NCBI GenBank assembly: GCA_044432645.1
Contig: JAWXUM010000008.1
Span: 1,056-65,055, forward strand
Origin: Clostridia bacterium
GTDB lineage: Bacteria; Bacillota; Clostridia; Oscillospirales; Acutalibacteraceae
Direction of reading: 5' to 3'
Length of the DNA: 64,000 bases
The notes beneath the pieces were generated by a model. It made no database searches. It was not told the DNA's origin and was given only the letters and a program-made list of their open reading frames with translations. Positions 1 through 34,148 of this stretch are shown piece after piece. Position 1 is the stretch's first letter; each line of letters begins with the position of its first letter. Made by a program: the position numbers and the translations under genes.

Positions 1-130
1 GTTAAATAAAAAGGTGGAAGCTTTTTATTATCGAGGAGCGTTGTCAGTGAAGAACCGACAAGTTTCTGCCTAAATAGACTTTATTTTTTATACAATTCAA
101 ACAAATTGTATAAGCTTTATGAACTTTGAG

Positions 131-161
131 ATAAAAATAAAGCTTACATTAAGCAAGCTTT
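131..161 (-). terminator. Rho-independent terminator downstream of the recombinase gene
   Basis: On the minus strand, AAAGCUUGC / GUAAGCUUU stem (one G-U pair), 5-nt loop, then AUUUUUAU. Same structure at 23383-23413. Confidence 0.55.
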
Positions 162-244
162 ACTTTTAAAAAGTTTGGTTGCGGAGATAGGGATTGATGT
201 TGTATGCTCTTAGGGTTGGAACTTGAACCCCTACCACTTTTTAA

Positions 245-1909
245 TTAGACAGCTATTTTTAATTGTTTGTGTTTTTCTTTAGCAATTTGGATTATATTTT
301 TTTGTGGCTGACCGACAAGTCCTATATCTCTGTAGTAAATCCACACGTCTTGAACTGCGTTTCTTTTGGATTTTTCTGGTCTTTCTTCGACTATGATTTT
401 GTCTATGAAAGTTCTTAGAATTTCGCTTGTCAGTTCATTGATATTGGTGTATTTTTTAGCTTTTGAGATAAACTTTTCGGTGTCTTGCATTGTGTTTTCA
501 AGTTTTACGATTTGCTCTTTTAAGTCTGGAAGTGAAGTTTTTATCTCTTTTTGTTCTTGGTTATAGCAAGTCGATAACATTTGGAATTGCTCGTCTGAAA
601 TCTTGCCAAGCACATTATCTTCGTAGGTCTTTTTGAACAATACTAGCAGTTCGTTATCACGCTTTTCTAATTTAGAAACTTGTTTGTGTAGCTTGCTAAG
701 TTCCTTTTTAGTTTCAGCATTGCTTTTATCGATTATGAACTTAACAAACTTTTCTTCGTCTTGCCTTGCAAAATGTGTGACTCTTTTGATTTCATCAAGT
801 AACATTGTTTTCAAATGCTTTTCACTAATTCTGTGAGGTGTGCATTCTTTACTACCATATTTTCTGTTTGTAGCACATACGAAATAGCAGTTGCCAGTTT
901 TGTTTTCCCTTGTAAACGAGAGTGGTTTTTTGCAGTCGTTACAGAATACCATACCAGAAAACATATTAGGAATCAACTCGCCTTTTGCGGGTCTTTTTCT
1001 GTTTTTTCTAACATTTTGGCAGATTTCCCAAGTATCTTTGCTGACTAATGGTTCGTGTGTATTCTCGAATTTAACCCATTCATCTTCTGGTTTTACAATA
1101 TGCTTTTTGTTTTTGTAGGACAAAGTTGTGTATTTTAAGTTGATTGTATTACCAATGTACACTTCATTATCTAAAACTTGAGCAACTGTTTTTGATGACC
1201 AATGATAGGGATGTTCGATGTCGATATTGGTAAGTTTGACATTTGTTATACTATAATAGTAGTTGCTTGGGGTTAGAATTTGCATTTCTTCAAGCTTGTT
1301 TGCTATTATCTTCGGACCACAACCATCCATACATAATTTGAAAATTAGCTTAACATTGTCGGCAGTGTCTGGGTTTGGAACTATCTTTTTAATGTCGGGA
1401 TTATTCATGTAACCATAAGGAGCTCTGCCAGAAACTCTTTCGCCACGTTCGGCTTTTGATTTTATCACAGCTTTGATTTTCTTGCTACAATCTTTGGCAT
1501 ACCATTCGTTGATGATGTTTTTGAATGGTGTGAATTCGTTGTCGCCTTTGGCACTGTCAACTCCGTCATTGATTGCGATAAATCTTACTCCGTAAGTTGG
1601 AAAGTCGATTTCCATAAGCTTTCCAACTTGTAAATACTCACGACCTAGCCTTGACATATCTTTTACGATTAGCGTTGAAACTTGGTTGATTTCAATCAAA
1701 TTCATAATTTCAATCCATGCTGGTCTTATAAAAGTCGTGCCTGAATACCCATCATCACTTTTGATTACGATGTTTTCAAAACCATGCTCTTCTGCATATT
1801 TTTGAAGTAACATTTTCTGATTTTGTATGCTGTTTGACTCACCGAAACTTTCATCTTCTTGACTTAATCTTGCGTATAAAATTGTATATTTTTGTGTTGT
1901 ACCTTTCAT
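245..1909 (-). CDS. Large serine recombinase (TnpX/TndX-like)
   Basis: 554 aa. N-terminal resolvase motif YARLSQEDE with catalytic Ser, recombinase domain, Cys-rich zinc ribbon (CNDC...CATNRKYGSKEC), C-terminal coiled coil. SD AAGAGG upstream. Confidence 0.93.
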   Translation of the reverse strand: MKGTTQKYTILYARLSQEDESFGESNSIQNQKMLLQKYAEEHGFENIVIKSDDGYSGTTFIRPAWIEIMNLIEINQVSTLIVKDMSRLGREYLQVGKLMEIDFPTYGVRFIAINDGVDSAKGDNEFTPFKNIINEWYAKDCSKKIKAVIKSKAERGERVSGRAPYGYMNNPDIKKIVPNPDTADNVKLIFKLCMDGCGPKIIANKLEEMQILTPSNYYYSITNVKLTNIDIEHPYHWSSKTVAQVLDNEVYIGNTINLKYTTLSYKNKKHIVKPEDEWVKFENTHEPLVSKDTWEICQNVRKNRKRPAKGELIPNMFSGMVFCNDCKKPLSFTRENKTGNCYFVCATNRKYGSKECTPHRISEKHLKTMLLDEIKRVTHFARQDEEKFVKFIIDKSNAETKKELSKLHKQVSKLEKRDNELLVLFKKTYEDNVLGKISDEQFQMLSTCYNQEQKEIKTSLPDLKEQIVKLENTMQDTEKFISKAKKYTNINELTSEILRTFIDKIIVEERPEKSKRNAVQDVWIYYRDIGLVGQPQKNIIQIAKEKHKQLKIAV

Positions 1910-1996
1910 TTTTACCTCTTTCTGTATTGCGTGGGAGGTTTTAGGTACTGAATACTGTAATTCAATTATACTCTAAAACCTCCAACAAGTCTATTA

Positions 1997-2248
1997 TTAT
2001 TTGCTGTAATCGTTATCAATTATTTGTAGCATTTTATCATCAATAGCGACTAAATTGTCAGTAGGGAATACCGAGTGAATTCGATATCCTTTTCCATCAA
2101 TATCCATATATCTGTGTGAATAACATTTGCCTTGATATTTTTGAAGTTTGCTATCGGTGAATTTATCATCAACAATTTCCGTTGTTTCATAAGCTCCAAA
2201 AACTTTGTTTTCCATATAATATTTAGCTTCGTTTTGTATCTCTCTCAT
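1997..2248 (-). CDS. Hypothetical 83-aa protein, translationally coupled to the relaxase (TAATG overlap)
   Basis: ORF conserved in both element copies (25248-25499). GGGAGGA SD lies inside the relaxase 3' end. Confidence 0.6.
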   Translation of the reverse strand: MREIQNEAKYYMENKVFGAYETTEIVDDKFTDSKLQKYQGKCYSHRYMDIDGKGYRIHSVFPTDNLVAIDDKMLQIIDNDYSK

Positions 2249-3579
2249 TAATATCCTCCCATTTTTATATCATTTTTCGGTGTGTAATCTATTTCATTTT
2301 CTTGTTCTAATTTTAAATTATCAATGTAATTTTCTACATCTTCATCATTTATGTCGCTTTCGTTTTGTGATTTTAGCCACTCAATTAATAGGTAAACACC
2401 AGCTATTGTTAAGGCTGTTATTTCTACCATAGTTAATATTTCAGCCATTTTATCATCTTCATTTTCTGCTTGTTCTAATCTTTTAATTGACCACATCAGG
2501 TTGTTGGTTAAAGTCCTAGTTGATGCTTTATTAGTAGAAAAGTTATCAGACCTGTCAACATCATGAAGTTCAGCAGAATTATTCCTATTGCTGTTTTCAA
2601 GTTGGAACAGTTCTTCTCGTTCAGCTTCCCATCCAGTTCTTGTTTCTGTTGTAGGATTTGCAGCATCTGCTTGAGTTCCTTGAGCTCCTGATAGTATTGA
2701 TGTCGGTTCTCTAGTTGTTTCACATTGTAATTTATCGACTGTATTTTCTCTTGTGAATTGTTCAGTATATCCACTATCAACTGCTGATTGTCGAATATAT
2801 TGTCTATATTCTGCTCCGTCCAACTGCAACTGCTCGGCTTGTGCAATTCTTTCAATTTGTTCAATTCTTTGTCGTCTAAGTTCAAATTCTTTCTCCATTC
2901 TAATTTTCAAATATCGTTCTTGGTGTAGTTTATTATCTCGGCATTTCATTGAGTTTGGGCAAGTGTAAGTTATGCTTTTTCTGTTTTCTTCCCATTTTAC
3001 TTGATATCCCTCTGATTGCATTAGCTTTTTAAATTGCTCTTTAGATTTAGAAAATCTCATGCAATCATCTATGGTATTTATCAGCTTAAACTTCCAACTT
3101 TCGCCTTTTAAAGCTGAGTGATATTCTTTGCTACTCATTTGATTTTCTCTTTTGTTTTTTGAGTAAGTCGTAAGAGGTGTATCGCCAAATTTCAAACAAA
3201 TCTCATCATTTATCTTTCTGTTATTGACTAAATCATCATGGTTTTGATGTAACTTTTTACCTGTTTCAAAATTTACAGAGTTGATAATTATATGGTTGTG
3301 TAGATTTTCGGTGTTCTGATGGGTTGAAATAATTGCTTCAAAATTTGGAAATTCTTTTGCTACAAATTCTAAACCAATTTGATTTATTTCTTGTGGTGTT
3401 AGGTTTGTATTTGACGGAAATGACTGAACAAATTGATAAAACATTCGTCCGTTGTTTTTTCTAAATTGGTTTTTAGTGGTCATCATTTCGTCAAATGCTG
3501 ATGGCACTAAACAATTAAATCCAGTGTTTAAACCTTTGGTTTTCTCCATGTCAAGAGCATAGGTTATACTCTTAAGCAT
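2248..3579 (-). CDS. Relaxase/mobilization nuclease (MobA/VirD2-type)
   Basis: 443 aa. Histidine triad HQNTENLHNHIIINS. Directly follows mobC. Variable Gln/Glu-rich C-terminal half with a terminal hydrophobic helix. Confidence 0.88.
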   Translation of the reverse strand: MLKSITYALDMEKTKGLNTGFNCLVPSAFDEMMTTKNQFRKNNGRMFYQFVQSFPSNTNLTPQEINQIGLEFVAKEFPNFEAIISTHQNTENLHNHIIINSVNFETGKKLHQNHDDLVNNRKINDEICLKFGDTPLTTYSKNKRENQMSSKEYHSALKGESWKFKLINTIDDCMRFSKSKEQFKKLMQSEGYQVKWEENRKSITYTCPNSMKCRDNKLHQERYLKIRMEKEFELRRQRIEQIERIAQAEQLQLDGAEYRQYIRQSAVDSGYTEQFTRENTVDKLQCETTREPTSILSGAQGTQADAANPTTETRTGWEAEREELFQLENSNRNNSAELHDVDRSDNFSTNKASTRTLTNNLMWSIKRLEQAENEDDKMAEILTMVEITALTIAGVYLLIEWLKSQNESDINDEDVENYIDNLKLEQENEIDYTPKNDIKMGGY

Positions 3580-3623
3580 TGCCGTTTTAGTTTGCGTTTT
3601 GTTTTTGATAGCGTATAAAATTC

Positions 3624-3929
3624 CTATATAATCACCTCCGATATATTGTTGATTTTTGAATGAACTAAGCTTAATTCGAGGATCATGTTTTCTAAATTGA
3701 TTGAACTAATTTTACCCATATTGGCTAAAGTTGTAAGCTGATTTAGGTTTCGTCCAATAGCTTTTAGTTCGGTTGTTAGCTGTGACAATCCGTCTATCAC
3801 AACTATTGGTTTATCAAGTGCTTGTCTTGTGAGATATTCTGTTGTTGTCAAATGAGCTTTTTTAGCTTTCGACTTGATTTTATTAAGGTCGTTTTCGTTA
3901 ATTCTAAATGCAAAGTTTTTGTTTTTCAT
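3624..3929 (-). CDS. mobC: MobC-family relaxosome accessory protein
   Basis: 101 aa with the MobC signature GRNLNQLTTLAN. SD AAAGGA. Identical protein at 26875-27180. Confidence 0.85.
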   Translation of the reverse strand: MKNKNFAFRINENDLNKIKSKAKKAHLTTTEYLTRQALDKPIVVIDGLSQLTTELKAIGRNLNQLTTLANMGKISSINLENMILELSLVHSKINNISEVII

Positions 3930-3963
3930 AAGTTCCTTTCTGCGTAAATATATGGTTTGCGTT

Positions 3964-4044
3964 CTTAAGGGGTTCGGGTTCGCCCGACAAGCTGTGTTCG
4001 CCGTATAGGCGAATGCTATGCTTGCCTCTCTTGTAAGAGAGTTT
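3964..4044. promoter_or_regulatory. Putative oriT (two hairpins just upstream of mobC)
   Basis: TTCGCC-gtata-GGCGAA (3997-4013) and CTCTCTT-gt-AAGAGAG (4026-4041) flank ATGCTATGCTTGCC. Locally GC-rich. Conserved at 27215-27295. Confidence 0.5.
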
Positions 4045-4980
4045 TCGTAGATAAAAGTTAGTGGGTGCTGACACCAATGACGCCACTGACACGAGATTTA
4101 GGTAGGGAACAGTAGTAGAAGTTTAACGTCATTGCTGTGTTTTTCAATTGTGCATAGTCAAATCATCCTTTCTAAATTCAAAAAAGTGGGAGCAATATTC
4201 ATATTACGAAACAGGTGTTTTTTACCCTCTACTATATAAAGACACTTCTAAGCCAAAATGTTCCTAAGTAGATAAAAAATTTTAAAAATAAATTTATCCC
4301 TCTAATAGGTAGAACACGAGAAACTAATTTTGTAACCCCTTTTGCAAAAATATTTTAATTAATTTAAAATGTCCTATACTATATAGCTACAACCTACAAA
4401 GCAAAAAACCACCATTAATTTTTTATAAAAAATATCCCTACACCTATTTACACACTCAGAAGCAAAAACACAGGGTGTTTTTCAAAAAAAGTTTTTAAAA
4501 ATATTTTTGCAAAATAAAAAAGCCCTTTGAAATTAATCAAAGAGCCTTAGTGTAAATATAAAATTGTGTATATATACTTATTATGTATTCAGAAATGAAA
4601 AAGTAATTGTTTTGTAGGACAAATAAAAACCGATGGTTATGACAAATTAATTTTGAGTTTAATTAATCACAGATACGAAAAATATATAAATCTTACTCTG
4701 AAAATTTTTCTTTATATTATAATTATGTATCAAGATTTCAATAATGTATAAAAATCAATAACAAATAAAAACCAATTTGATAACAAATTAATTTGCAAAA
4801 AAAATAACTCTCTACTATATAGGACAGTTGTAGAGAGTTTGTAAACCAAAATTATTTAATTTTATTACAGACACGAAAAATATATAAATTTCACTCTATG
4901 AAATTAACGTCATTGGTGTCATGGTGTCATAGTTTGTTTTTATCAACAGAAAAAATATAATAATTTTAAGTGTGGTAAGT

Positions 4981-5375
4981 GTAACTTGGTAAGATATTTC
5001 TAGTGTTTATCACGTTCTTTGGATTTTTACAAGTGTAACCAAAGCGTAACTTAAGTGTAACTGGTAACACATGAGTAACATTTGGGTAACACTTGCGTGT
5101 GTGCGAAAAAGTCAGTGTTCATCAGATTTTTGGGACTTGGTAACACTTACCACACTTGTTTTAAAGTAAAGCTGTTATATATACAAAAAAATCTGTCACT
5201 ACTGACACTTTACAAAAAAGTCTAGGTTTTAAGCCATTCTTAGGAAATTTACTAGTGACACCTTTTCGTTACTTTACCGACACAAATGACAGAAATATAT
5301 CGGATAAATAACAGGTTTAAATTGCGATAAACTCAGTGTTTGCAAGGGTTTCTAGGAAAAGTGACAGAATGACAG
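4981..5375 (+). repeat. Strand-biased short-motif arrays (GTAAC x8, then TGACA[C/G] x5-6)
   Basis: GTAAC at 4981, 5035, 5046, 5057, 5064, 5075, 5086, 5140. TGACAC/TGACAG at 5203, 5256, 5287, 5362, 5370. No credible ORF. Same arrays at 28878-29270. Confidence 0.7.
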
Positions 5376-5731
5376 AAAATTTAAACAAGAGTAACGTCCT
5401 AATTAAAAATCCTTTCTCTAACGCCAAACAAATTCGCAAACTGTGGCTCATGAGCCTTGTCTGTGATTTTAAGTTAGTTGGGGTGGTATCCTTACCCTAA
5501 GAGCGAATAATAAATCGACAAACTCTGACTTAGGTCTTGTCAACTACTCTAAAAACACGTTGTTAGTCCTTGCGTAATAATAGGCAAAAAGCATTTTAAT
5601 TATGTGTTATATTAGCTTAAAATATCGTATATTATATAATTTTGTTTATTATAGCAATAGAACTAAAAAAATATATATGTTATAATTACACTGTGCAAAA
5701 AGAACATCAATTCAAGTTTAAGGAGATAGTT

Positions 5732-9490: not shown

Positions 9491-9593
9491 GAAAATCAAA
9501 ACAAAATAAAATATACTTTTTAATATATAGCAAATCGTATAAAACAAAAGAACAACCATCTCTGATTGTCCTTAAAAGTTGTGTGATTTAATT

Positions 9594-9862
9594 TTTACAG
9601 TATCCAGACCCTCGGTTCACATTCCCACCTTAAGAGCATATACCTGAACCTATGACCTTCGGGTTATGAGCTTTGCTATAAGCGAAAAATTCAGTGTTTA
9701 TGGGAGTTTATAGCACTTTTTAGTCCATAAAATTGCCAAAAACCCGAGTGTCATTTCCACCCAGTCCACTGTTTCCGTCCCAGTTTTTCCTATTATGGGT
9801 CAAAACATGGGTCAAACCTTAAAAGTAATAAAGTCTAGTTTAATTTTTAATAAAAATAAGTT
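9594..9862 (+). repeat. About 270-bp dispersed repeat (U270), copy a
   Basis: Near identical to 34368-34637. Contains segments homologous to parts of the serine-recombinase elements and tandem ATGGGTCAA iterons (9794-9815). Confidence 0.8.
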
Positions 9863-9896
9863 CTCAAAATTTGCTATGCTGTAAACAAAGAAAGAG
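9863..9896 (+). repeat. Cassette-boundary site, copy 1
   Basis: CTCAAAATTTGCTATGCTGTAAACAAAGAAAGAG. Confidence 0.85.
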
Positions 9897-9923
9897 AATT
9901 TATCTTCTTGATAGCATTTTTAA

Positions 9924-10394
9924 TTATTTTAAACCAAATTCAATCTTTAAAGAGTTATATCTATCTTTTTCATGTGGTGATACTTCAAAAAATGGATTAT
10001 ATATGCAGTGTTGCATAACGTCGGCATCAATTAAAACTTCATCAAAAGAGCTATGTTTTATACCTTTACTGCTGTGATTATATATTGCTGAGCATATTTG
10101 CTCTATTTCTTTTTCGGTGAATAAAGATAATTTTTGCAAGATTTCTTTCGCAATAACTGAGCCTTTGTGTGCGTGGTTTGTGCTGTCTAAAGTAGAATAA
10201 ATGTAAATGTCATGGAGCATTCCAGCAATAGTGGCGAGTTCCACATCTTCATTTCGTTTCATTGCAATTAACGTGCAAACTTGGGATACACCATATAAAT
10301 GAATGTAAGCAGCTCTTTTTTCTTCATTGTTTGGAATATTAAATATCACTTGGTCAACGTATTTTCTTACTTCTTCAATTCTATTCATAAGCAC
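9924..10394 (-). CDS. HD-domain phosphohydrolase
   Basis: 156 aa with H...HD motif (GMLHDIYIY). The track start is GTG. ATG at 10388 behind GAGGTG is the more likely start. Confidence 0.8.
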   Translation of the reverse strand: MLMNRIEEVRKYVDQVIFNIPNNEEKRAAYIHLYGVSQVCTLIAMKRNEDVELATIAGMLHDIYIYSTLDSTNHAHKGSVIAKEILQKLSLFTEKEIEQICSAIYNHSSKGIKHSSFDEVLIDADVMQHCIYNPFFEVSPHEKDRYNSLKIEFGLK

Positions 10395-10429
10395 CTCACT
10401 AAATTATATGTTAATTTTATTGCATGGCT

Positions 10430-10463
10430 CTCAAAATTTGCTATGCTGTAAACAAAGAAAGAC
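10430..10463 (+). repeat. Cassette-boundary site, copy 2
   Basis: CTCAAAATTTGCTATGCTGTAAACAAAGAAAGAC. Last base overlaps the stop codon of 10463-11035. Confidence 0.85.
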
Positions 10464-11035
10464 TATTTTCTAAGCTTATCATATTGCACAACAGTTTCAC
10501 CAGTTTTAAGATTAATTTTTTCTTTATATAATAAGGTATATCTTATCTGACCTTTGGTATAATCTCTGTTGGTTTTTGGAAAGAATGAGCGACAGAAATA
10601 TGTATTATCCTCATTTTTAGAAATAAATATGTAAATATCGTTAGATTCCAACGGAGTTGATAGTAAAAAATCGGCTTGAATAAACGAAAAGGCATTAATT
10701 TTTTCATTGTATCTAAAAACTAAATTGTTATTATCTAGGATTTTTTCAATGTTGGCAAGTGGGATAAATCTATCTTCAATTTGAGAAATAAACTCACTTG
10801 TAGATATTTTTGCATAAGTTAATTTGTTATTAATAATGTCTGTGAAAACCTTAAAACGATTTTGATTAGCAACTTCTAAATCTCTAAGTTTAACAAGACC
10901 CATTAAATGATGAAACTGTGAAGAAAGAAACCTAATTCTAAGTTCAATTTTTTCACCTTTTCGCCCTAAAACAATTTTGTATTCAGTATGGGTAAGATTT
11001 TCAAATGCTTTTGCACACGCCAATAGTTTGTCCAT
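10463..11035 (-). CDS. Putative PBECR4-like (barnase/EndoU/RelE-fold) nuclease, paralog A
   Basis: 190 aa with an FHHLMGL motif. Paralog at 34671-35243. The family assignment is from memory and is tentative. Confidence 0.55.
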   Translation of the reverse strand: MDKLLACAKAFENLTHTEYKIVLGRKGEKIELRIRFLSSQFHHLMGLVKLRDLEVANQNRFKVFTDIINNKLTYAKISTSEFISQIEDRFIPLANIEKILDNNNLVFRYNEKINAFSFIQADFLLSTPLESNDIYIFISKNEDNTYFCRSFFPKTNRDYTKGQIRYTLLYKEKINLKTGETVVQYDKLRK

Positions 11036-11228
11036 AAAATTCCTCTCTGTATAAAGAAAGTCGCCTTGCTTTCACAAGACGACTAACAATAGCGTTTTCT
11101 TTCGGTATTACTACCTACATCGGTTCGAGGTTGCCACTCAACCCATCCGTAGAGCTCCATACAACAAGGCGACCGATACCCCCTTGCATATCAACACTCA
11201 AACAGACACACAGTCGTTGCCTGTTGTT
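11036..11228 (-). ncRNA. Structured 5' leader RNA with intrinsic terminator (copy A)
   Basis: Promoter TTGACA-N17-TAATAT. Conserved 5' block, covarying helix (11172-11177 with 11119-11124). Terminator hairpin 11059-11084 plus U-run directly before the SD. Confidence 0.6.
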
Positions 11229-11234
11229 ATTATT

Positions 11235-11263
11235 ATATTACACTATTATAGCAAATATGTCAA
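11235..11263 (-). promoter_or_regulatory. Sigma-70-type promoter of leader A
   Basis: -35 TTGACA (11258-11263), 17-nt spacer, -10 TAATAT (11235-11240). Identical arrangement at 35439-35467. Confidence 0.6.
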
Positions 11264-11272
11264 CGAGTTTAG

Positions 11273-11302
11273 AAAAATTTGCTATGCTGTAAACAAAGAG
11301 AG
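11273..11302 (+). repeat. Cassette-boundary site, copy 3
   Basis: AAAAATTTGCTATGCTGTAAACAAAGAGAG, 5 nt from the stop codon of 11308-11607. Confidence 0.8.
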
Positions 11303-11307: not shown

Positions 11308-11607
11308 TTATGATATTGCGATGCGTTCGTATTTAAAACTGTTTTTATATAAAGTTTCAGTTGCGATATCAATATCTCCGTCAAGCCAAGTAAGGATTCC
11401 ATCGATAATTTTGCAAGTTTTGAAAACTTCATCTTTTTTCAAAACTTCAAAAACTGGAATATCAGTTAATGTTGTGGCATCAAAAAGACGATCTTCGCTT
11501 GTGTTAAACGTAACAATCATCATCATATCATCTAAAGCTTTAACGTTTACTACTTCTAAATAATCAACGTTTTCACTTGCGTAAGCAATTCCATTTATAA
11601 TTCGCAT
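11308..11607 (-). CDS. DUF2442-family protein
   Basis: 99 aa. Pattern ...IVTFNTSEDRLFD...GILTWLDGDIDIATETLY is typical of DUF2442. Confidence 0.75.
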   Translation of the reverse strand: MRIINGIAYASENVDYLEVVNVKALDDMMMIVTFNTSEDRLFDATTLTDIPVFEVLKKDEVFKTCKIIDGILTWLDGDIDIATETLYKNSFKYERIAIS

Positions 11608-11618
11608 AATATTCCTCC

Positions 11619-11882
11619 TTAAAGTGGTTTGATTTTATCAAAGGCAACGCCTTGTACAGCTTTATTCCACGCTCCATAAACTTCTTCTTCGTATAAAGCA
11701 AGCCAACCGACAACCATTTTTAGTTGCCTAATTGGTAAAGCTCCAGCGAGCAACTCGCCGTCAAGAGCAATAGAAGCTTTATATTCTCCATAAGTTACGT
11801 GAACGTGTGGTTTATTGTGCTGAACAGTGTCTAAAAATAACATTTTAATTATAATTCCTTGAAATCGACATATTTCTGGCAT
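11619..11882 (-). CDS. DUF4160-family protein
   Basis: Start moved to MPEICRF (SD AAAGGAG). HNKPHVHVTYGEYKA motif is typical of DUF4160. Confidence 0.75.
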   Translation of the reverse strand: MPEICRFQGIIIKMLFLDTVQHNKPHVHVTYGEYKASIALDGELLAGALPIRQLKMVVGWLALYEEEVYGAWNKAVQGVAFDKIKPL

Positions 11883-11970
11883 AATAAATCTCCTTTTGTA
11901 TAGTATATCCACTGCTGTTTACAAATAAGTTATTAATGTAATTTTATCATAAAATTGCGATTTTTTCAAC

Positions 11971-12231
11971 TTATACATTCAATTTTTTCCTAAGTGCTTC
12001 TAGGCAATCGTCTGCATCTAGCACTTTGCCTTCCCTAATTTCATCTTCTGCTAACGCAAGTTTGGTGTAAAGTTCAAGCTTTGCAATTTTTTCTTCATAA
12101 GCTTCTAAATCCATTATTACCATTGAACCATAACCATTTTTGGTGATATAAATAGGCTCTTTTGTCTCGCTACACATTGCAGAAATAAGAGAAGTGTTTT
12201 TTAAATCTTTAATTGGAATAATTTGTGGCAT
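11971..12231 (-). CDS. Phd/YefM-like type II antitoxin
   Basis: Start moved to MPQIIPIKDLKNT (SD AAGGAG). EPIYITKNGYGSMVIMDLEAYE motif. Confidence 0.6.
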   Translation of the reverse strand: MPQIIPIKDLKNTSLISAMCSETKEPIYITKNGYGSMVIMDLEAYEEKIAKLELYTKLALAEDEIREGKVLDADDCLEALRKKLNV

Positions 12232-12368
12232 ATCTATCAACTCCTTTATGGGATAATTATACCATTATTATATGTGAATTTCAAGATAAAATTAGCGTTT
12301 TAAGATTTTCCTTGAATACTTATCATATAATTGCTATAATTATTTTATTAAATAAACTCGAGGTGGCT

Positions 12369-17921: not shown

Positions 17922-17974
17922 AAATTAACGAAATATTTTTTGCTTTGTAACTAGCTATTCCATACTTAATGTGA

Positions 17975-18007
17975 TATACTCCTTGTTAACAAAAACAAAG
18001 GAGTATA
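17975..18007 (+). promoter_or_regulatory. SD-sequestering hairpin upstream of the 79-aa ORF
   Basis: Perfect 10-bp stem TATACTCCTT / AAGGAGTATA. The right arm contains the AAGGAG SD 5 nt before ATG 18012. Repeated at 63830-63862. Confidence 0.5.
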
Positions 18008-18011
18008 GAAA

Positions 18012-18251
18012 ATGGCGAAGTTTACACTGCAAGAATTTTACTTAGGCGATGAGTATAACGTTATGGGTGAGGCTGTAAAGGATTTACTTACAAATGGCTC
18101 ACCTGATTATGAAGAACGAACTGGAATTGAGCTACTCATAGCAAAGCATTCTATCAAAGCAGCAATTAAAATGATTGAAAAAGGCGATTTTATTTTAGAC
18201 CTAGAGTCTGAAATGAAATCGCTTTCGCTATATCTGGGGGTGATTGAATGA
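18012..18251 (+). CDS. Hypothetical 79-aa protein
   Basis: Good SD. ATGA overlap with the next ORF. A 33-aa in-frame deletion variant lies at 63867-63968. Confidence 0.55.
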   Translation: MAKFTLQEFYLGDEYNVMGEAVKDLLTNGSPDYEERTGIELLIAKHSIKAAIKMIEKGDFILDLESEMKSLSLYLGVIE

Positions 18252-18696
18252 AAATACTAGAAGAACTATATCACGGCAACATAAATCCTAATGTGAAATT
18301 TTACAAGCAAAATACTAACTACGCAAAAGCAATGGACATTATTGCAACAAATGAAGACAGATAGTCGAATAAGCCCCAAATCATCATATCTTGGTGGCTA
18401 AAATTTCGCCTATCTTCGTTGTCGTCAATCGTATACGCCAGTATTACTCATTCCTCCGCCTAAATAGACAAAATTTTATCTCACCAATATTCAGACGCTT
18501 TGGAGCTTAATCGACTATACTCCCAGCAATACTTAAAGGAACAGAGAAAAAAGTTTTTATGGAATACCTAGATGCACAAGCGATAGTTATGAGGGAAAGC
18601 AGCGTGGAAGAGTTTATCATAGGATTTAAACTAGGAGCTAAAATCACACTAGCAATGGTTTCAGAAGATGACAGAATTTTTAAAGATATAGTGTAA
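18248..18696 (+). pseudogene. Small LEELYHGNI-motif gene (DUF6809-like, tentative) interrupted by a MITE-like insertion
   Basis: 38 codons run into TAG at 18362, the first bases of the insert. The C-terminal part (ILPAILKGTEKK...FIIGFKLGAKI...) continues after 18517 in another frame. Confidence 0.55.
18362..18517. mobile_element. MITE-like 156-bp insertion
   Basis: Terminal inverted repeats TAGTCGAATAAGCCCCAAA / TTTGGAGCTTAATCGACTA (17 of 19 match), internal inverted repeats, no ORF. Confidence 0.6.
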
Positions 18697-18747: not shown

Positions 18748-18780
18748 TCAAATTTTGGGGCGCTGTAATCAAAGAAAGAG
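18748..18780 (+). repeat. Cassette-boundary site, copy 4 (variant type)
   Basis: TCAAATTTTGGGGCGCTGTAATCAAAGAAAGAG. Followed by about 110 bp homologous to the sequence downstream of the integrase gene. Confidence 0.75.
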
Positions 18781-18897: not shown

Positions 18898-19503
18898 ATG
18901 ATAAAAGCTATTTTATTTGATTTTGACGGAGTACTAACTGTTGACAAGACAGGCTCTACCTCGATAACTAACTATATATCGAAAAAATGTAATATCCCTT
19001 TAAGTGATGTAAAAAAGAGCTATTACAAACACAATCATGCCTTATTAAAAGGAGAAATTGTTCATGAAGATATGTGGGATGAATTTTGTGGTGATTTAAA
19101 GAAAGAAATTTCATATGATATTCTCATAGAATCTTTTATCGAAACAAGACTTGATGAAGAAATGATTAATATTGTAAAAAATTTAAAACATCAATATTTA
19201 ATTGGCTTGATAACAGATAACAAGTTAGATAGGATAGATACTATTTTCAAAAAAGCAAATTTGTATCAATATTTTGATTGCATTGCAGTTTCTGCGGAAT
19301 TGAAAATAAATAAAGAATCAAGTGAAATGTTTGAATATGTTAGCAAACAGTTACAGGTGAAACCTAATGAATGTTTATTTATTGATAACTCAGAAAAGAA
19401 TTTAGTAATGCCAAATTCAATTGGTATGAAAACTATTCTTTTTGACGACGAGAAAAGAGACATAAAAAACTTTAATATTATATTGAATAACTTACTATTG
19501 TGA
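18898..19503 (+). CDS. HAD-superfamily hydrolase
   Basis: Motif I LFDFDGVLT. 201 aa. Confidence 0.85.
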   Translation: MIKAILFDFDGVLTVDKTGSTSITNYISKKCNIPLSDVKKSYYKHNHALLKGEIVHEDMWDEFCGDLKKEISYDILIESFIETRLDEEMINIVKNLKHQYLIGLITDNKLDRIDTIFKKANLYQYFDCIAVSAELKINKESSEMFEYVSKQLQVKPNECLFIDNSEKNLVMPNSIGMKTILFDDEKRDIKNFNIILNNLLL

Positions 19504-19555: not shown

Positions 19556-19616
19556 AAAGCGTTTGAACATAAAAGTTAGCTAGGTAAGGGTAAGACACCA
19601 CCTAGTAAAGTTAAGG
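19556..19616 (+). repeat. About 60-bp dispersed repeat (R60), copy i
   Basis: AAAGCGTTTGAACATAAAAGTTAG...TAAGGGTAAGACACCACCTAGTAAAGTTAAGG. Related copies at 19958-20017 and 63733-63794. Confidence 0.6.
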
Positions 19617-19886: not shown

Positions 19887-19918
19887 TCAAATTTTGAGCC
19901 ATTGTAAACAAAGAAAAG
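19887..19918 (+). repeat. Cassette-boundary site, copy 5 (variant)
   Basis: TCAAATTTTGAGCCATTGTAAACAAAGAAAAG. Confidence 0.7.
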
Positions 19919-19957: not shown

Positions 19958-20017
19958 ACGTTTGAACATAGAAGTTGATATCCTAAGGGTAATACACCAC
20001 CTGGAAAAGTTAAGTCC
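19958..20017 (+). repeat. R60 repeat, copy ii
   Basis: ACGTTTGAACATAGAAGTTGATATCCTAAGGGTAATACACCACCTGGAAAAGTTAAGTCC. Confidence 0.6.
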
Positions 20018-20240: not shown

Positions 20241-20480
20241 ATGAAAGAATCAATGTACAAAAGTTATGATGAACTGCCGTTGTTTTTAAATGCAAAAACT
20301 ATTTCACAGGTGTTAGGGATTGCACCATCTAGTGCTTATGAGTTAATGCATGAAGAAAGTTTTCCTGTTTTAAAAATTGGAAACCGAATGGTTGCTCCAA
20401 AAGAGAAGTTCATTATGTGGGTAGAAAAAAATAGCAAGCAGATAATTGAATTTTTAGTTTTTACAAGGTATGAGGTTTAA
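20241..20480 (+). CDS. Excisionase/MerR-type helix-turn-helix DNA-binding protein
   Basis: LNAKTISQVLGIAPSSAYELM...PVLKIGNRMVAPKEKFIMWVEKN. SD GAAAGGA. Confidence 0.7.
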   Translation: MKESMYKSYDELPLFLNAKTISQVLGIAPSSAYELMHEESFPVLKIGNRMVAPKEKFIMWVEKNSKQIIEFLVFTRYEV

Positions 20481-20512
20481 AGGCTGGTGAAATCGCTATC
20501 TATGCTTATTTA

Positions 20513-20827
20513 ATGTCGATTGAAAATCGAAAAACTTTTCAGTGCTACCCAAGTTATAAAACTATTGGTAGTGCAGTCGGAATGAGTGTAAATACTGTTC
20601 AAAAATATGTAAAAAGTTTAGAAGATAAAAATTTTATCTCAACAGAGTCAACTTCTATTTTTAGAAAAACTGGTGAAAAGGTAAACGGAAATTTGCTCTA
20701 TACAATTAAGCCAATAGCCGAAACTATCCAAACTTTCCACGAAAAGCAAATGGCAGAGTTTGACAGGCAAAACGCTATTTACCGATTTGAGAAGAAAAAC
20801 GACAGAGAATATATTATAGCAGGATAA
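20513..20827 (+). CDS. Winged-helix/HTH protein, probably N-terminally truncated
   Basis: CYPSYKTIGSAVGMSVNTVQKYVKSLEDKNFI. The family-typical ...IAIYAYL... segment lies in frame upstream of the first ATG, just after a stop codon. Confidence 0.5.
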   Translation: MSIENRKTFQCYPSYKTIGSAVGMSVNTVQKYVKSLEDKNFISTESTSIFRKTGEKVNGNLLYTIKPIAETIQTFHEKQMAEFDRQNAIYRFEKKNDREYIIAG

Positions 20828-20912
20828 AGTGACGTGGTCGTCGCAGTCACTTCGGACGGCAGTGCCGACCGTTTTTACTAGTAAACAAGCCATTCTTTAC
20901 GATTTAACTCAA

Positions 20913-21010
20913 GGTGGTCGGATTTTACAAACTGTGTCGGCTAGGTGGACGGATTTACAAGAAATCAAGGAAATAAGCCATTTTAAAGGTGGTCGACTAG
21001 GTGGACAAAC
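20913..21010 (+). repeat. Four direct GGTGG(T/A)C repeats upstream of the integrase gene (arm-type or iteron-like sites)
   Basis: GGTGGTCGGATTTTACAA 20913, GGTGGACGGATTTACAA 20944, GGTGGTCGAC 20988, GGTGGACAAAC 21000. Confidence 0.55.
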
Positions 21011-21105
21011 TAAATTTATCAAAATGTACACAGTTTATCATAAGTTTATATAAGATTAAACATTGAAATTATAGTATTGTTAAACTTAAAAAAAGGAGGG
21101 ATTTT

Positions 21106-22275
21106 ATGGCTAAACGTAGGGCTAATGGTGAGGGGAATATTCGCAAGAGGAGTGACGGACGTTGGGAAGGTCGGTATACTGCTGGGACTAATGCTGAAAC
21201 AGGCAAACAGATTTTTAAGAATGTTCTTGCCAAGACACAGGCTGAATGTAAGGAAAAATTAAAGCTTGCTATCGAGAATGTCAAGGGGATTGATGTTACT
21301 AAAACTGACAAATATAATGTTGGTGAATGGCTTGAAATATGGTTCGAGAATTATGCAAAAATCAAGGTTAGGGCAAGTTCTCACCAAACTTATATCGGTT
21401 ATATTAACAACCATATCAAGCCTAGAATTGGGGAAATTAAACTTAATAAGTTGACTAATTTGGACTTGCAAAAGATGTACAAGGACTTGCTTGAAAATGG
21501 CAGAGTGGTTAGGACAGAGAGCAAAAACCAATCAAGTGGACTTAGTGCCAAGACAGTTAGGAACATTCATCAAGTGGTTTCGTCAGCTTTAGAAACAGCT
21601 GTTTCACAAAAGTTAATCAGCTCAAACCCAGCTGAACATTGCCAACTTCCTAAAGCTGAAAAGAAAGAAATGCAGACACTCACAGCAAGTCAGCTAGAGA
21701 AATTTTTTATAGAGGCGAAAAACAGTGGAGTTTTTGAGCTGTATTATGTAGAAATTGCCACAGGTTTAAGACGTGGAGAAATTTTGGGTTTGAAGTGGAA
21801 AGATATAGATTTTGACAGCCAAACAATCACAGTTCACAGACAAATTATGAGAGTAAATGGCGAAATTATCGAAAGTCCACTTAAAACAAAAAATTCCTAT
21901 CGGAAAGTTCCAATAGGAGTTGATGTGGTTGAAATACTTAAATATTTAAAAGCAAATTCAACAAGTGAATATGTGTTCTGTAATAAAGAGGGCAATGCAA
22001 TCTCACCAGATAGTGTTCTAAATATGCTACACCGAGTTCTAAAAAGAGCGAACTTGCCAAAAGTAAGATTTCACGATTTAAGGCACACATTCGCAACACT
22101 TGCCTTGCAAAATGGAGTAGACATTAAAACAGTTTCATCAATCTTAGGTCACTTCTCAGCAGGCTTCACACTTGATACTTACACCCACGTAACCACAACA
22201 GCACAACTAAACGCAGCCAACACAATGAGTGGAATTTTACAAAATGCTACCATGTCAAAAATTGATACGCTGTAA
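21106..22275 (+). CDS. Tyrosine site-specific integrase
   Basis: 389 aa. N-terminal SAM-like domain. Catalytic residues in RRGEILGLKW, HDLRHTFAT, LGH and LDTYTHV. SD AAGGAGGG. Confidence 0.92.
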   Translation: MAKRRANGEGNIRKRSDGRWEGRYTAGTNAETGKQIFKNVLAKTQAECKEKLKLAIENVKGIDVTKTDKYNVGEWLEIWFENYAKIKVRASSHQTYIGYINNHIKPRIGEIKLNKLTNLDLQKMYKDLLENGRVVRTESKNQSSGLSAKTVRNIHQVVSSALETAVSQKLISSNPAEHCQLPKAEKKEMQTLTASQLEKFFIEAKNSGVFELYYVEIATGLRRGEILGLKWKDIDFDSQTITVHRQIMRVNGEIIESPLKTKNSYRKVPIGVDVVEILKYLKANSTSEYVFCNKEGNAISPDSVLNMLHRVLKRANLPKVRFHDLRHTFATLALQNGVDIKTVSSILGHFSAGFTLDTYTHVTTTAQLNAANTMSGILQNATMSKIDTL

Positions 22276-22287
22276 TCAAAGAAAGGG
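22255..22287 (+). repeat. Cassette-boundary site, copy 6 (overlaps the last 6 codons and stop codon of the integrase gene)
   Basis: TCAAAAATTGATACGCTGTAATCAAAGAAAGGG. The TAA at 22273-22275 is the integrase stop codon. Confidence 0.8.
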
Positions 22288-23130: not shown

Positions 23131-23496
23131 AATTATATATGGGTCAAATGAAAATGTCTGCTTTTTTGGGTACGGTTTATTTCCCGTATGGGTCAAGTTA
23201 TGGGTCAGGGGTTGATTTATTTGAAAAAGGGTAAAAAAATAAAGGCTATTTAGTTAAATAAAAAGGTGGAAGCTTTTTATTATCGAGGAGCGTTGTCAGT
23301 GAAGAACCGACAAGTTTCTGCCTAAATAGACTTTATTTTTTATACAATTTAAACAAATTGTATAAGCTTTATGAACTTTGAGATAAAAATAAAGCTTACA
23401 TTATGCAAGCTTTACTTTTAAAAAGTTTGGTTGCGGAGATAGGGATTGATGTTGTATGCTCTTAGGGTTGGAACTTGACCCCCTACCACTTTTTAA

Positions 23497-25161
23497 TTAG
23501 ACAGCTATTTTTAATTGTTTGTGTTTTTCTTTAGCGATTTGGATTATATTCTTTTGTGGTTGACCGACAAGTCCTATATCTCTATAGTAAATCCACACGT
23601 CTTGAACTGTGTTTCTTTTGGATTTTTCTGGTCTTTCTTCGACTATGATTTTATCTACGAAAGTTCTTAGTATTTCGCTTGTCAGCTCATTGATATTGGT
23701 GTATTTTTTAGCTTTTTCAATGAACTTTTCGGTGTCTTGCATTGCGCCTTCAAGTTTTTCAATTTGCTCTTTTAAGTCTGGAAGTGAAGTTTTAATCTCT
23801 TTTTGTTCTTGGTTATAGCAAGTCGATAGCATTTGGAATTGTTCGTCTGAAATCTTGCCTAGCACATTATCTTCATATGTCTTTTTGAACAATACTAGCA
23901 GTTCGTTATCTCGCTTTTCTAATTTAGAAACTTGTTTGTGTAGCTTGCTAAGTTCCTTTTTAGTTTCAGCATTGCTTTTATCGATTATGAACTTAACAAA
24001 CTTTTCTTCGTCTTGCCTTGCAAAATGTGTGACTCTTTTGATTTCATCAAGCAACATTGTTTTCAAATGTTGCTCGCTAATTCTGTGAGGTGTGCATTCT
24101 TTACTGCCATATTTTCTGTTTGTAGGACACACGAAATAGCATTTGCCAGTCTTGTTTTCCCGTGTAAATGATAGTGGTTTTTCGCAGTTGTTACAGAACA
24201 CCATACCAGAAAACATATTTGGAATTGACTCGCCTTTTGCGGGTCTTTTTCTGTTTTTTCTAACATTTTGGCAGATTTCCCAAGTATCTTTGCTGACTAA
24301 TGGCTCGTGTGTGTTCTCAAATTTAACCCATTCATCTTCTGGTTTTACAATATGCTTTTTGTTTTTGTAGGACAAAGTTGAATACTTCAAACTTACCGTA
24401 TTTCCAATGTACACTTCGTTATCCAAAATTTGAGCAACTGTTTTTGATGACCAATGATAGGGGTGTTCGATGTCGATATTGGTGAGTTTTACATCGGTTA
24501 TACTATAATAGTAGTTGCTTGGAGTGAGAATTTGCATTTCTTCAAGCTTATTTGCTATTATCTTAGGACCACAACCATCCATACATAATTTGAAAATTAG
24601 CTTAACATTGTCGTCAGTGTCTGGGTTTGGAACTATCATTTTGATGTCATGATTATTCATATAACCATAAGGAGCTCTGCCAGAAACCCTTTCGCCACGT
24701 TCAGCTTTTGCCTTTATTACAGCTTTGATTTTCTTGCTACAATCTTTTGCATACCATTCGTTGATGATGTTTTTGAATGGTGTGAACTCATTGTCACCTT
24801 TGGTACTGTCAACTCCGTCATTAATTGCGATAAATCTTACTCCATAACTTGGGAAGTCAATTTCAGTTAGCTTGCCAACTTGTAAATACTCACGACCTAG
24901 CCTTGACATATCTTTTACGATCAGCGTTGAAACTTGGTTGGTTTCAATCAAGTTCATAATTTCCATCCATGCTGGTCTTATAAAGTTTGTTCCTGAATAT
25001 CCATCATCACTTTTGATTACGATATTTTCAAAACCATGCTCTTCTGCATATTTTTGAAGTAACATTTTCTGATTTTGTATGCTGTTTGACTCACCGAAAC
25101 TTTCATCTTCTTGACTTAATCTTGCGTATAAAATTGTATATTTTTGTGTTGTACCTTTCAT
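23497..25161 (-). CDS. Large serine recombinase (copy 2)
   Basis: 554 aa, same architecture as 245-1909 with scattered substitutions. Confidence 0.93.
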   Translation of the reverse strand: MKGTTQKYTILYARLSQEDESFGESNSIQNQKMLLQKYAEEHGFENIVIKSDDGYSGTNFIRPAWMEIMNLIETNQVSTLIVKDMSRLGREYLQVGKLTEIDFPSYGVRFIAINDGVDSTKGDNEFTPFKNIINEWYAKDCSKKIKAVIKAKAERGERVSGRAPYGYMNNHDIKMIVPNPDTDDNVKLIFKLCMDGCGPKIIANKLEEMQILTPSNYYYSITDVKLTNIDIEHPYHWSSKTVAQILDNEVYIGNTVSLKYSTLSYKNKKHIVKPEDEWVKFENTHEPLVSKDTWEICQNVRKNRKRPAKGESIPNMFSGMVFCNNCEKPLSFTRENKTGKCYFVCPTNRKYGSKECTPHRISEQHLKTMLLDEIKRVTHFARQDEEKFVKFIIDKSNAETKKELSKLHKQVSKLEKRDNELLVLFKKTYEDNVLGKISDEQFQMLSTCYNQEQKEIKTSLPDLKEQIEKLEGAMQDTEKFIEKAKKYTNINELTSEILRTFVDKIIVEERPEKSKRNTVQDVWIYYRDIGLVGQPQKNIIQIAKEKHKQLKIAV

Positions 25162-25247
25162 TTTTACCTCTTTCTTTTGGTGTGGGAGGTTTCAGGTACT
25201 GAATACTGTAATTCAATTATACTCTAAAACCTCGCACAAGTCTATTA

Positions 25248-25499
25248 CTATTTACTAAAGTCACTGTCAATTATTTGAATAATTTTCTCATCAATAGCGA
25301 TTAAATTTTCAGTAGGGAAAACCGAGTGAATTCGGTATCCTTTCCCATCAATATCCATATATCTGTGCGAATAACATTTGTCTTTATATTTTTGAAGTTT
25401 GCTGTCGGTGAATTTATCATCAACAATTTCCGTTGTTTCATAAGCTCCAAAAACCTTGTTTTCTAAATAATATTTTGCTTCGTTTTGTATCTCTCTCAT
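25248..25499 (-). CDS. Hypothetical 83-aa protein (copy 2)
   Basis: Homolog of 1997-2248 with the same TAATG coupling. Confidence 0.6.
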   Translation of the reverse strand: MREIQNEAKYYLENKVFGAYETTEIVDDKFTDSKLQKYKDKCYSHRYMDIDGKGYRIHSVFPTENLIAIDEKIIQIIDSDFSK

Positions 25500-26830: not shown

Positions 26831-26874
26831 TGCCGTTTTAGTTTGCGTTTTATTTTTGATAGCGTATAAAATTC

Positions 26875-27180
26875 CTATATAATCACCTCCGATATATTGT
26901 TGATTTTTGAATGAACTAAGCTTAATTCGAGGATCATGTTTTCTAAATTGATTGAACTAATTTTACCCATATTGGCTAAAGTTGTAAGCTGATTTAGGTT
27001 TCGTCCAATAGCTTTTAGTTCGGTTGTTAGCTGTGACAATCCGTCTATCACAACTATTGGTTTATCAAGTGCTTGTCTTGTGAGATATTCTGTTGTTGTC
27101 AAATGAGCTTTTTTAGCTTTCGACTTGATTTTATTAAGGTCGTTTTCGTTAATTCTAAATGCAAAGTTTTTGTTTTTCAT
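26875..27180 (-). CDS. mobC: MobC-family protein (copy 2)
   Basis: Identical in sequence to the 3624-3929 product. Confidence 0.85.
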   Translation of the reverse strand: MKNKNFAFRINENDLNKIKSKAKKAHLTTTEYLTRQALDKPIVVIDGLSQLTTELKAIGRNLNQLTTLANMGKISSINLENMILELSLVHSKINNISEVII

Positions 27181-27214
27181 AAGTTCCTTTCTGTGTAAAT
27201 ATATGGTTTGCGTT

Positions 27215-27295
27215 CTTAAGGGGTTCGGGTTCTCCCGACAAGCTGTGTTCGCCGTATAGGCGAATGCTATGCTTGCCTCTCTTGTAAGAGAGTTT
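27215..27295. promoter_or_regulatory. Putative oriT (copy 2)
   Basis: Same two hairpins as 3964-4044. Confidence 0.5.
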
Positions 27296-27481
27296 TCGCT
27301 AGTTTTGTTCGGTACATCTAAAGCAGTTCCTAACCGAGAGTTTCACTCCGTTGTATTCTCGCTCGCTCTTGCTGGAGGTCATGGCAACATATCACCTTTA
27401 GCCGACTCATTCAATTTTCAATCTGATATAGATAATGTAAAACATATACTATATTTTCTATTATTATTTTAACAAATTTAC

Positions 27482-27510
27482 TTGACTTCGTAAATAGAAA
27501 ATGAGATAAT
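27482..27510 (+). promoter_or_regulatory. Promoter of the copy-2-specific cargo gene
   Basis: TTGACT-N17-TGaGATAAT. Confidence 0.6.
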
Positions 27511-27563
27511 AAACACGCATACTCTATTAGCCAAAATACATTATCTATTGGGAGGTAAATATA

Positions 27564-28535: not shown

Positions 28536-28877
28536 AAAGTCAATCACTGACACCAATGACGCCACTGACACGAGATTTTGGGAGTGACAGTCGCTGAAGT
28601 TTAACGTCATTGCTGTGTTTTTTAATTATGCATATCCAAATCATCCTTTCTAAATTTTAAAAAAGTGGGAGCAATATTCATATTACGAAACAAGTAGTTT
28701 TTTACCCTCTACTATATAGGACAGTTGTAGAGAGTTTGTAAACCAAAATTATTAAATTTTATTGCAGACACGAAAAATATGATGTTCGCTCTAAAAAATT
28801 AACGTCATTGGTGTCATGGTGTCATAGCTTGTTTTTATCAACAGAAAAATATTATACTAATTTTAAGTGTGGTAAGT

Positions 28878-30836: not shown

Positions 30837-30851
30837 ATTATTTTACCCTCC

Positions 30852-31550: not shown

Positions 31551-31563
31551 TTATGTACCTCAT

Positions 31564-33524: not shown

Positions 33525-34148
<624 letters not shown>

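Follow-up and report, generated by a model that had tools for sequence, protein, structure and literature searches.

Integrons are the model for gene-by-gene capture, and to our knowledge none is known in Firmicutes. They are defined by an IntI-type tyrosine recombinase with an IntI-specific insertion, by attC sites, which are imperfect inverted repeats of low sequence conservation that fold as single strands, and by promoterless cassettes that share one orientation and one promoter. Acinetobacter plasmids carry pdif (Xer) modules, discrete blocks of genes between short, conserved recombinase sites whose two arms differ and whose centre is variable. These sites lie in inverted orientation around the modules, resemble the chromosomal dif site and are thought to use the host XerC/XerD; dif-like sites measure 28 bp in an 11-6-11 layout. 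The tycheposons of Prochlorococcus are tyrosine-recombinase elements that stand, together with integrase-less satellites, in tandem at tRNA genes, with partial tRNAs between the cargo blocks. In GInt islands (ginABCD), one end of the island carries an operon with three tyrosine recombinase genes and a fourth, small gene. Site-specific tandem accretion has been described for integrative and conjugative elements (ICEs), integrative and mobilizable elements (IMEs) and the cis-mobilizable elements (CIMEs) beside them, e.g., ICESt1/ICESt3 of Streptococcus thermophilus (review PMC5704250). Here we describe a 64,000-nucleotide stretch of a Clostridia bacterium of the Acutalibacteraceae (contig JAWXUM010000008.1, positions 1,056 to 65,055; hereafter the window), in which small gene units are bounded by copies of a 31-bp sequence (hereafter the site), and in which a 567-bp unit with an HD-domain gene is present in one of two related regions and missing from the other.

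The two regions were read and aligned, and both showed the order given in an earlier note on this DNA. Region A (9594-11302) consists of a repeat that we call U270, site 1, the HD gene, site 2, a PBECR4 gene with its upstream leader, and site 3, whereas region B (to 35484, from 34368) consists of U270, one site, and a PBECR4 gene with its upstream leader. Pairwise alignment matched them end to end, and in the alignment and in self-BLAST of the window a single 567-bp gap in B was the sole large indel. The ends of the gap were exact and not ragged, which bears out the proposal that the HD unit is a precise segment between site copies. On the A side they are formed by a perfect 34-nt direct repeat (9862-9895 = 10429-10462). 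Because the repeat is perfect, the indel can be placed anywhere within it, for example at 9896-10462 (no strand), where it comprises the HD unit and one site copy; the segment first given, 9897-10463, is within 1 nt of a valid placement, but any such choice is arbitrary. The left blocks (9589-9901 vs 34363-34676) were 96.5% identical, so the sequences left of sites 1 and 7 do match. The right blocks (10427-11280 vs 34635-35484) were homologous with 78% identity overall, but the match claimed to the right of sites 2 and 7 is not uniform, and the claim that the HD segment is the only difference holds for large indels and not for the PBECR4 gene and its leader. Identity was 96 to 100% over 9599-9847 and 10454-10603, fell to ~60 to 78% with small indels over 10604-11202 (most of PBECR4 and its leader RNA), and returned to 98% over 11203-11252, within the last ~80 nt. 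One gain in A and one loss in B both fit the difference. In either case, the pair is a natural occupied-versus-empty comparison, from which a recombination assay can take exact sequences of both substrate and product.

The difference had been read as the footprint of site-specific recombination. The exact ends, a conserved family of co-oriented sites and the linkage to tyrosine recombinases speak for this reading, but the 34-nt repeats and the near-identical flanks would also permit homologous recombination or slippage. In one such alternative, region B lost the HD unit by homologous recombination or slippage between the 34-nt repeats, and the sites, which would be there for some other reason, served in this case as short homologies only. 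It is favored by the perfection of the repeats over 34 nt and their spacing of only 567 bp, and by a mosaic identity profile that indicates homologous exchange between elements in this very region. However, it leaves unexplained how a common, chromosomal-type HD gene came to lie between two site copies, and the comparisons with other genomes given below add to its difficulties; we regard it as rather unlikely. In another alternative, the presence or absence of the unit was moved by homologous recombination in the long flanks (U270 and the 3' 150 nt of PBECR4), as an allelic replacement or gene conversion from a third element, and the A/B difference would then be uninformative about recombination at the site. 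The flanks of 96 to 100% identity (~250 nt left, ~150 nt right) around an interior of ~60 to 78% form a typical mosaic, as this explanation expects. It still needs a site-HD-site donor, however, so that the problem of origin is only moved, and no such donor was found by plasmid and phage BLAST of region A, which gave no match, by an exact-site metagenome scan or among the HD homologues. We consider it distinctly improbable.

The site has a consensus of roughly TCAAAWWTTG-nnnCGC-TGTAAACAAAGAAA. Its 25-mer core occurred four times in the window, against zero expected from shuffles. A position-weight scan of the window gave seven sites, all on the plus strand with scores of 31 to 42, and nothing between 14 and 31. 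Site 1 (9864-9894; score 42.3, with the exact 25-mer core) is the left boundary of the HD cassette, and site 2 (10431-10461; 42.3) lies between the HD and PBECR4 cassettes. Site 3 (11272-11302; 31.5) is composite: its left part, GAAAAATTT, goes with the PBECR4 cassette and its right part, AAAGAGAGC, with the next module (DUF2442, DUF4160, Phd). Site 4 (18748-18778) precedes a promoter and a HAD hydrolase gene (18898-19503, plus strand). Site 5 (19887-19917) lies upstream of an excisionase-integrase module, and site 6 (22255-22285) overlaps the integrase end, with a promoter and a peptidase S51 gene after it. Site 7 (34639-34669; 42.3) is the single, "empty" site of region B. At the end of region B, a half-site on the plus strand (35471-35484) consists of the left arm GAAAAATTT alone, which matches site 3 in its left part; beyond it the sequence is unrelated, as the earlier note had described.

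Two comparisons within the window bear on where strands may be exchanged. Sites 4 and 6 have the right arm and ~100 nt of right flank in common but differ in the left arm and centre, while site 3 and the region B half-site share the left arm only. Taken together, they confine the crossover to a place between AAATTT and CTGTAAAC in the variable centre; a crossover near AAATTT/G, as suggested before from the half-site, is compatible with the half-site and agrees with both comparisons. The heptamer TGTAAAC is what we take to be the sole resemblance of the site to the dif site of Firmicutes.

We also weighed a role of the 31-bp element as a DNA or RNA element with a regulatory or structural function (operator, insulator or terminator) or as the relic of a gene 3' end. 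Sites usually lie between gene ends or beside promoters, site 6 supplies the last six integrase codons (SKIDTL) and the stop codon, and the site translates in this frame as S-K-[FI]-x-x-L-stop, all of which would suit such a role. Against it, only 1 of 131 sites ends a long open reading frame (ORF), so that the site was rejected as a gene 3' end, and no consistent promoter accompanies it. Nor did it behave as an attC-like hairpin: six single-stranded DNA folds of the site with its flanks had z-scores of -0.45 to +0.79, and no dyad symmetry was seen. The orientation of the site is moreover constant within arrays regardless of the direction of the flanking genes, and breaks in homology coincide with its edges. 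A regulatory role is therefore unlikely, and we give this whole class of explanations very little credence.

Some further features adjoin the sites of the window. To the right of site 3, at 11308-12240 on the minus strand, lies a DUF2442/DUF4160 pair with a Phd/YefM antitoxin-like gene, typical toxin-antitoxin cargo. A 53-nt repeat occurs three times (19562-19614, 19961-20013 and 63741-63793), with two of the copies flanking site 5; it had no Rfam match and no convincing common fold.

A degenerate site pattern was scanned over one genome per species and gave at least 118 loci (numbered L001 onward where we name them), set against ~35 chance matches that we estimate for this pattern in a database of that size. 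The loci were mostly metagenome-assembled genomes of Clostridia among the matches listed, namely, Oscillospiraceae, Ruminococcus, Christensenellaceae and "Eubacteriales"; the matches in Bacteroidota and other scattered ones look like chance noise. A scan of viral contigs gave three matches. Among the matches with the extra features, several positions that the pattern had left free were conserved, i.e., T(-3) at 81%, C(-2) at 84%, C(+10) at 75%, G(+11) at 83% and A(+25 to +27) at 61 to 85%, and the flanks beyond them showed no conservation. A weight matrix built from the scan matches was passed by 87 loci, 26 of them with two or more sites among the matches listed, and with this matrix further, more divergent site copies were found in the fetched loci. 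In these 26 loci all adjacent site pairs listed (33 of 33) were in direct orientation, 313 to 5632 bp apart. The genes between the sites lay in either orientation, and included Fic/DOC, AbiEii, ParE, XRE-type regulators and GNAT acetyltransferases.

Breaks in homology were then sought at the sites themselves. All site pairs were compared with their 120-nt flanks, and pairs with one flank at least 80% identical and the other unrelated were retained. There were 11 of them, representing 7 independent cases, one of which is the pair of sites 2 and 7 of the window. In these pairs, homology that enters from the similar flank crosses the site and ends at the far edge of the 31-mer, at -3/-4 or at +31 to +34. 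Deletion between short repeats offers no reason for breakpoints at the edges of the 31-bp element in 7 independent comparisons. Furthermore, some arrays carry adjacent sites with different centres, e.g., L006 and L025. Neighboring sites of this kind are too dissimilar for homologous recombination, which excludes it as the way in which such arrays were built and leaves them, too, unexplained by the deletion model.

The recombinase candidates are found beside the sites. The recombination module of the window (20241-22275, plus strand) sits between sites 5 and 6 and consists, by Pfam, of an AlpA-like excisionase (20241-20480), an HTH_36 gene (20513-20827), orf74 and a tyrosine integrase (21106-22275). 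The same gene order was found beside sites in L017, L025, L050 and L116. Homologues of the integrase were the commonest protein family within 3 kb of the sites among the matches listed (20 of 87 loci, 28 ORFs), and all were co-oriented with the site. In 15 of 19 loci the site followed the last integrase stop codon by at most 70 nt, usually 7 to 70 nt. At the other module end the order was site, in some cases DUF6076 on the opposite strand, AlpA-like excisionase and HTH_36. The closest solved structure to the window integrase was the Tn1549 integrase (6EN0; E=1.4e-18, residues 142-364). It scored 54.8 bits against the integron-integrase model TIGR02249 (cut-off 265), over residues 303-368 only, and 36 against PRK15417 (cut-off 435), and it was below the cut-offs of XerC, XerD and XerS. 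In L143, L144 and L151, degenerate site-like sequences precede the excisionase or integrase; in L143, three such repeats 47 nt apart (4765-4888) lie just upstream of an integrase 65% identical to that of the window. Separately, L017, L053, L088, L091 and L106 hold a stretch resembling integrase residues 2-60 just downstream of the integrase gene or genes, usually a tandem pair, and in L017 this stretch continues the second integrase in frame at its C-terminal end.

The exact boundaries, the site family, its co-orientation, the integrase linkage and the mosaic breaks at the site form the basis on which we judge cassette gain and loss by recombination at the 31-bp site, within a family of clostridial integrative elements, to be the best explanation, with a probability slightly better than even. 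The window would carry a composite mobile island with two related elements that have the same right-hand module (U270, site and PBECR4 cassette), the first of which carries an extra HD cassette between two site copies. The site would act as a double-stranded, asymmetric recombination site that separates modules, with the crossover in its variable centre, between AAATTT and CTGTAAAC. A circular one-site unit would recombine with a resident site and become flanked by two direct copies, the reverse reaction would remove the unit, and the A/B difference would represent one such event. From the observed basis we infer enzyme catalysis at the site, the choice of enzyme and the circular intermediate. 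The most likely candidate is the co-oriented tyrosine recombinase family, in the window the integrase at 21106-22275 with its AlpA-like excisionase. The junction of a circular HD cassette is predicted to join ...TTATTGCATGGCTCTCAAAATTT to GCTATGCTGTAAACAAAGAAAGAGAATTTATC..., and the emptied site in the first element is predicted to join ...AATAAGTTCTCAAAATTT to ...AAAGAAAGACTATTTTC.

Several points weigh against this reading. The 34-nt identical repeats are long enough for RecA-dependent recombination or slippage, and the near-identical flanks show that homologous DNA is exchanged here. Part of the site consensus derives from the search pattern itself, and invariance at the pattern-fixed positions is so by construction. 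The exact-site metagenome scan gave two unrelated loci only, with no excised circle, empty-site read or close relative. The site centres also differ, being GCTATG around the HD gene and GAGCCA and GATACG on the two flanks of the window integrase module. Finally, the closest homologues of the integrase (65% identity; L141 and L142, loci reached by way of the integrase and not of the site) are followed not by the site but directly by GGGTCA repeats, a terminator and a tRNA(CAU) 3' half. This arrangement indicates that the primary attachment site of the integrase is probably tRNA-derived, and the 31-bp site would then be a second substrate of the integrase or belong to another enzyme.

By definition the system is not an integron, but it works like one, and functionally it is closest to the integron and to CIME accretion. 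Like an integron, it has small, mostly single-gene units, co-oriented sites, an adjoining tyrosine recombinase, toxin-antitoxin or accessory cargo, and precise gain or loss of one unit; the co-oriented, site-bounded array is present in the window (7 of 7 sites on the plus strand) as in the other loci with direct pairs. Unlike an integron, it has an integrase that is not IntI, as the 54.8 bits against 265 show, and its site is a sequence-conserved, double-stranded 31-mer without an attC-like hairpin. The cassettes are also self-promoted and lie in either orientation, with HD and PBECR4 on the minus strand and HAD and S51 on the plus strand; their own promoters are found at 11263-11235 and after sites 4 and 6. 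The excisionase-integrase module, furthermore, is itself flanked by sites. In contrast to the pdif modules, the sites here are all direct and dedicated recombinase genes adjoin them. In tycheposons the repeated boundary is a tRNA half, whereas here it is a separate 31-bp site and a tRNA half is present only as a remnant in U270. GInt islands differ in that the window has a single integrase and other loci have pairs, with no trio with ginD.

The likeness to CIME accretion (PMC5704250) lies in integrase-less, direct-repeat-flanked segments beside an integrase element, in a composite island at one chromosomal junction and in remnants of tRNA 3' halves. The layout in the window is the same, with the HD and PBECR4 units between sites 1 and 3 and the integrase module between sites 5 and 6 of one island. 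However, the units here are as small as 567 to 841 bp, up to seven sites lie inside one island, and the repeated site is not a tRNA-derived attachment sequence. CIMEs, moreover, are decayed elements and not single-gene cassettes.

The site thus marks module junctions in mobile elements of many Clostridia and points to integron-like gene swapping. The literature search found no description of the site sequence or of integron-like elements in Clostridia or Firmicutes. A wider reading, which we put forward tentatively and hold to be possible but somewhat less than evenly likely, is that Clostridia have an undescribed cassette platform of an integron-like kind, housed within integrative and mobilizable elements that target tRNA genes. 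Its double-stranded, asymmetric 31-bp site, variable in the centre, would be the substrate of Tn916/Xer-like tyrosine recombinases, acting singly or as tandem pairs, and self-expressed toxin-antitoxin, defence-like and accessory cassettes would be shuffled in this way. The attachment arm and the excisionase-integrase module would count as cassettes too. If true, a 31-bp site that is defined by its sequence and bounds single-gene units in many gut Clostridia would offer a second, mechanistically different route to gene-by-gene capture, in the bacteria that dominate the animal gut.

The HD cassette carries a gene for a 154-residue HD-domain protein (9924-10388, minus strand; Pfam PF01966, E=1.8e-9, with a gathering-score match of 38.4 bits against a cut-off of 22). 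It had been described as an HD gene with its promoter. The HD gene stands; as to the promoter, the 42 nt upstream of the gene within the segment hold a perfect TATAAT but a weak -35 element, and it is not listed by the promoter scan. The protein is one of a large clostridial family of small HD proteins, with more than 700 homologues at 60 to 74% identity. The nearest of them (69 to 74%) lie in ordinary chromosomal neighborhoods with no site nearby, and a search for the HD cassette in other site contexts accordingly gave none. PADLOC defence-system models had no match for HD, PBECR4 and their neighbors.

The second cassette combines an RNA with a protein gene. PBECR4-A (10463-11035, minus strand; 190 residues) matches Pfam PF18813 with E=2.4e-40, and its stop codon is 1 nt from site 2. 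The block upstream of it (11059-11263, minus strand) holds a promoter (11263-11235; TTGACA-17-TAATAT), a drum RNA (11199-11087) and a terminator (11084-11059). The copy in region B (34671-35467, minus strand) comprises PBECR4-B (P0123, 190 residues; 34671-35243), a drum RNA (35293-35403) and a promoter, assigned with Pfam and Rfam. The two proteins of the window reached 139.4 and 138.1 bits against the PF18813 gathering cut-off of 27. Both leaders are full-length drum RNAs (Rfam RF02958) with 82.5 (A) and 87 (B) bits against a gathering threshold of 43, and the promoter and terminator scan gave each a promoter and a 3' terminator. The same module was found at 3780-4582 in L125, 7780-8582 in L135, 1-815 in L136 and 7774-8576 in L137. 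In these four and in the window copies drum was always upstream of PBECR4, in the order promoter, drum, terminator, gene. The homology of L137 to the PBECR4-B/drum module ends at 35467. None of the copies outside the window was flanked by sites, so the module, too, was not recovered in other site contexts. The HD gene and the drum/PBECR4 module are thus both common and are found site-free elsewhere, so they were captured into the site-bounded format in this lineage.

The original description of the drum motif (Weinberg et al. 2017, PMC5737381) assigned no function to it and mentioned an associated protein nearby. The RNAs found here are likewise full-length with a 3' terminator; the paper left the partner protein open, whereas here it is consistently PBECR4. 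An orphan RNA thus gains a consistent protein partner, and copies in which both have diverged jointly make the function of the RNA testable. Drum and PBECR4 look like an RNA and a protein that diverge together, and the pair may be a toxin and its RNA antitoxin. As a separate observation, it is the drum RNA and the N-terminal three quarters of PBECR4 that are ~60 to 78% identical between the copies, with both flanks at 96 to 100%. The literature search on PBECR4 or DUF6076 found nothing.

U270 forms the left end of both regions (U270-A, 268 nt, 9594-9861; U270-B, 34368-34636; both plus strand, 96.5% identical by alignment and self-BLAST). U270-A contains a remnant like a tRNA(CAU) 3' half at ~9640-9680, with the motifs TTTATAGC and CCACTGTTTCCGT, and two direct TATGGGTCAA/CATGGGTCAA repeats at 9794-9815. 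The tRNA-like part agrees in 25 of 29 nt with the tRNA 3' half next to the integrase of L142. In other Clostridia, a 340- to 470-nt unit lies between two sites just downstream of integrases (e.g., L015 24-495, L045 2626-3090 and L088 4422-4886, and also in L118, L016 and L006), and its right part is homologous to U270. This unit consists, in order, of a hairpin, an opposite-strand tRNA 3' half broken in the anticodon loop, TTTATAGC with CCACTGTTTCC, and (A/G)TGGTCA direct repeats that come in pairs, 12 nt from each other. In L040 and L060 this place is taken by genuine tRNA-Pro genes, and in L103 the terminal site has a tRNA-Trp gene similarly close to it. The longer unit could be an attachment region or a tRNA-like RNA gene, and it also carries an outward promoter. 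Neither U270 nor the longer unit had an Rfam match, a tRNA or tmRNA by ARAGORN, or more than weak folding, and a known RNA was therefore rejected for both. The sequence features suggest that U270 is the decayed attachment arm of an integrase family that targets tRNA genes and has arm-type repeats. Across the loci, the general architecture appears to be attachment arm, site, a repeated series of cargo and site, excisionase-integrase, in some cases a further site, arm repeats and tRNA half; the degenerate site-like sequences in L143, L144 and L151 fit this order.

In the window, three TATGGGTCAA-type direct repeats on the plus strand at 23138-23208 are putative arm-type sites, being like the repeats after the integrases in L141 and L142. 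Repeats of this type are seen at 23138-23208 and also at 177-250 (= 23429-23502). By eye, a decayed stretch like a tRNA 3' end abuts the 3' end of a serine recombinase gene and resembles the integrase-proximal attachment region of L141 and L142.

The island has further mobile parts. Segments 1-5476 and 23253-29382 are 89 to 93% identical, and each carries a large serine recombinase (DUF4368), a MobA/VirD2 relaxase and MobC; the second copy has an extra DUF6076 gene (27564-28535). These Pfam assignments led us to reject a staphylococcal cassette chromosome (SCC)-like island, in which the pair of 554- and 443-residue proteins would have been ccrB/ccrA. To the right of 35485 begins a chromosomal-type sulfatase/glycoside-hydrolase locus, and the half-site at 35471-35484 is for this reason the right junction of the whole island with the chromosome; the left end of the island is cut by the window. 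Two partitions of the island are possible. It may consist of two serine-recombinase elements, each ending in U270, site and cassettes, or of a tyrosine-integrase element from 9594 to ~23500, with serine-recombinase elements left of each U270.

Some minor features were also observed. Three consecutive paralogous genes ending in a SHOCT domain lie at 30162-31911, and a small serine resolvase gene (33525-34139) lies just left of U270-B. A repeat at 17948-18282 is 95 to 97% identical to 63803-63999 and covers a 79-residue ORF, the first copy having a 130-nt extra segment. The copy at 63803-63999 suggests that related mobile DNA begins again at the window's right end, past the sugar-utilization locus.

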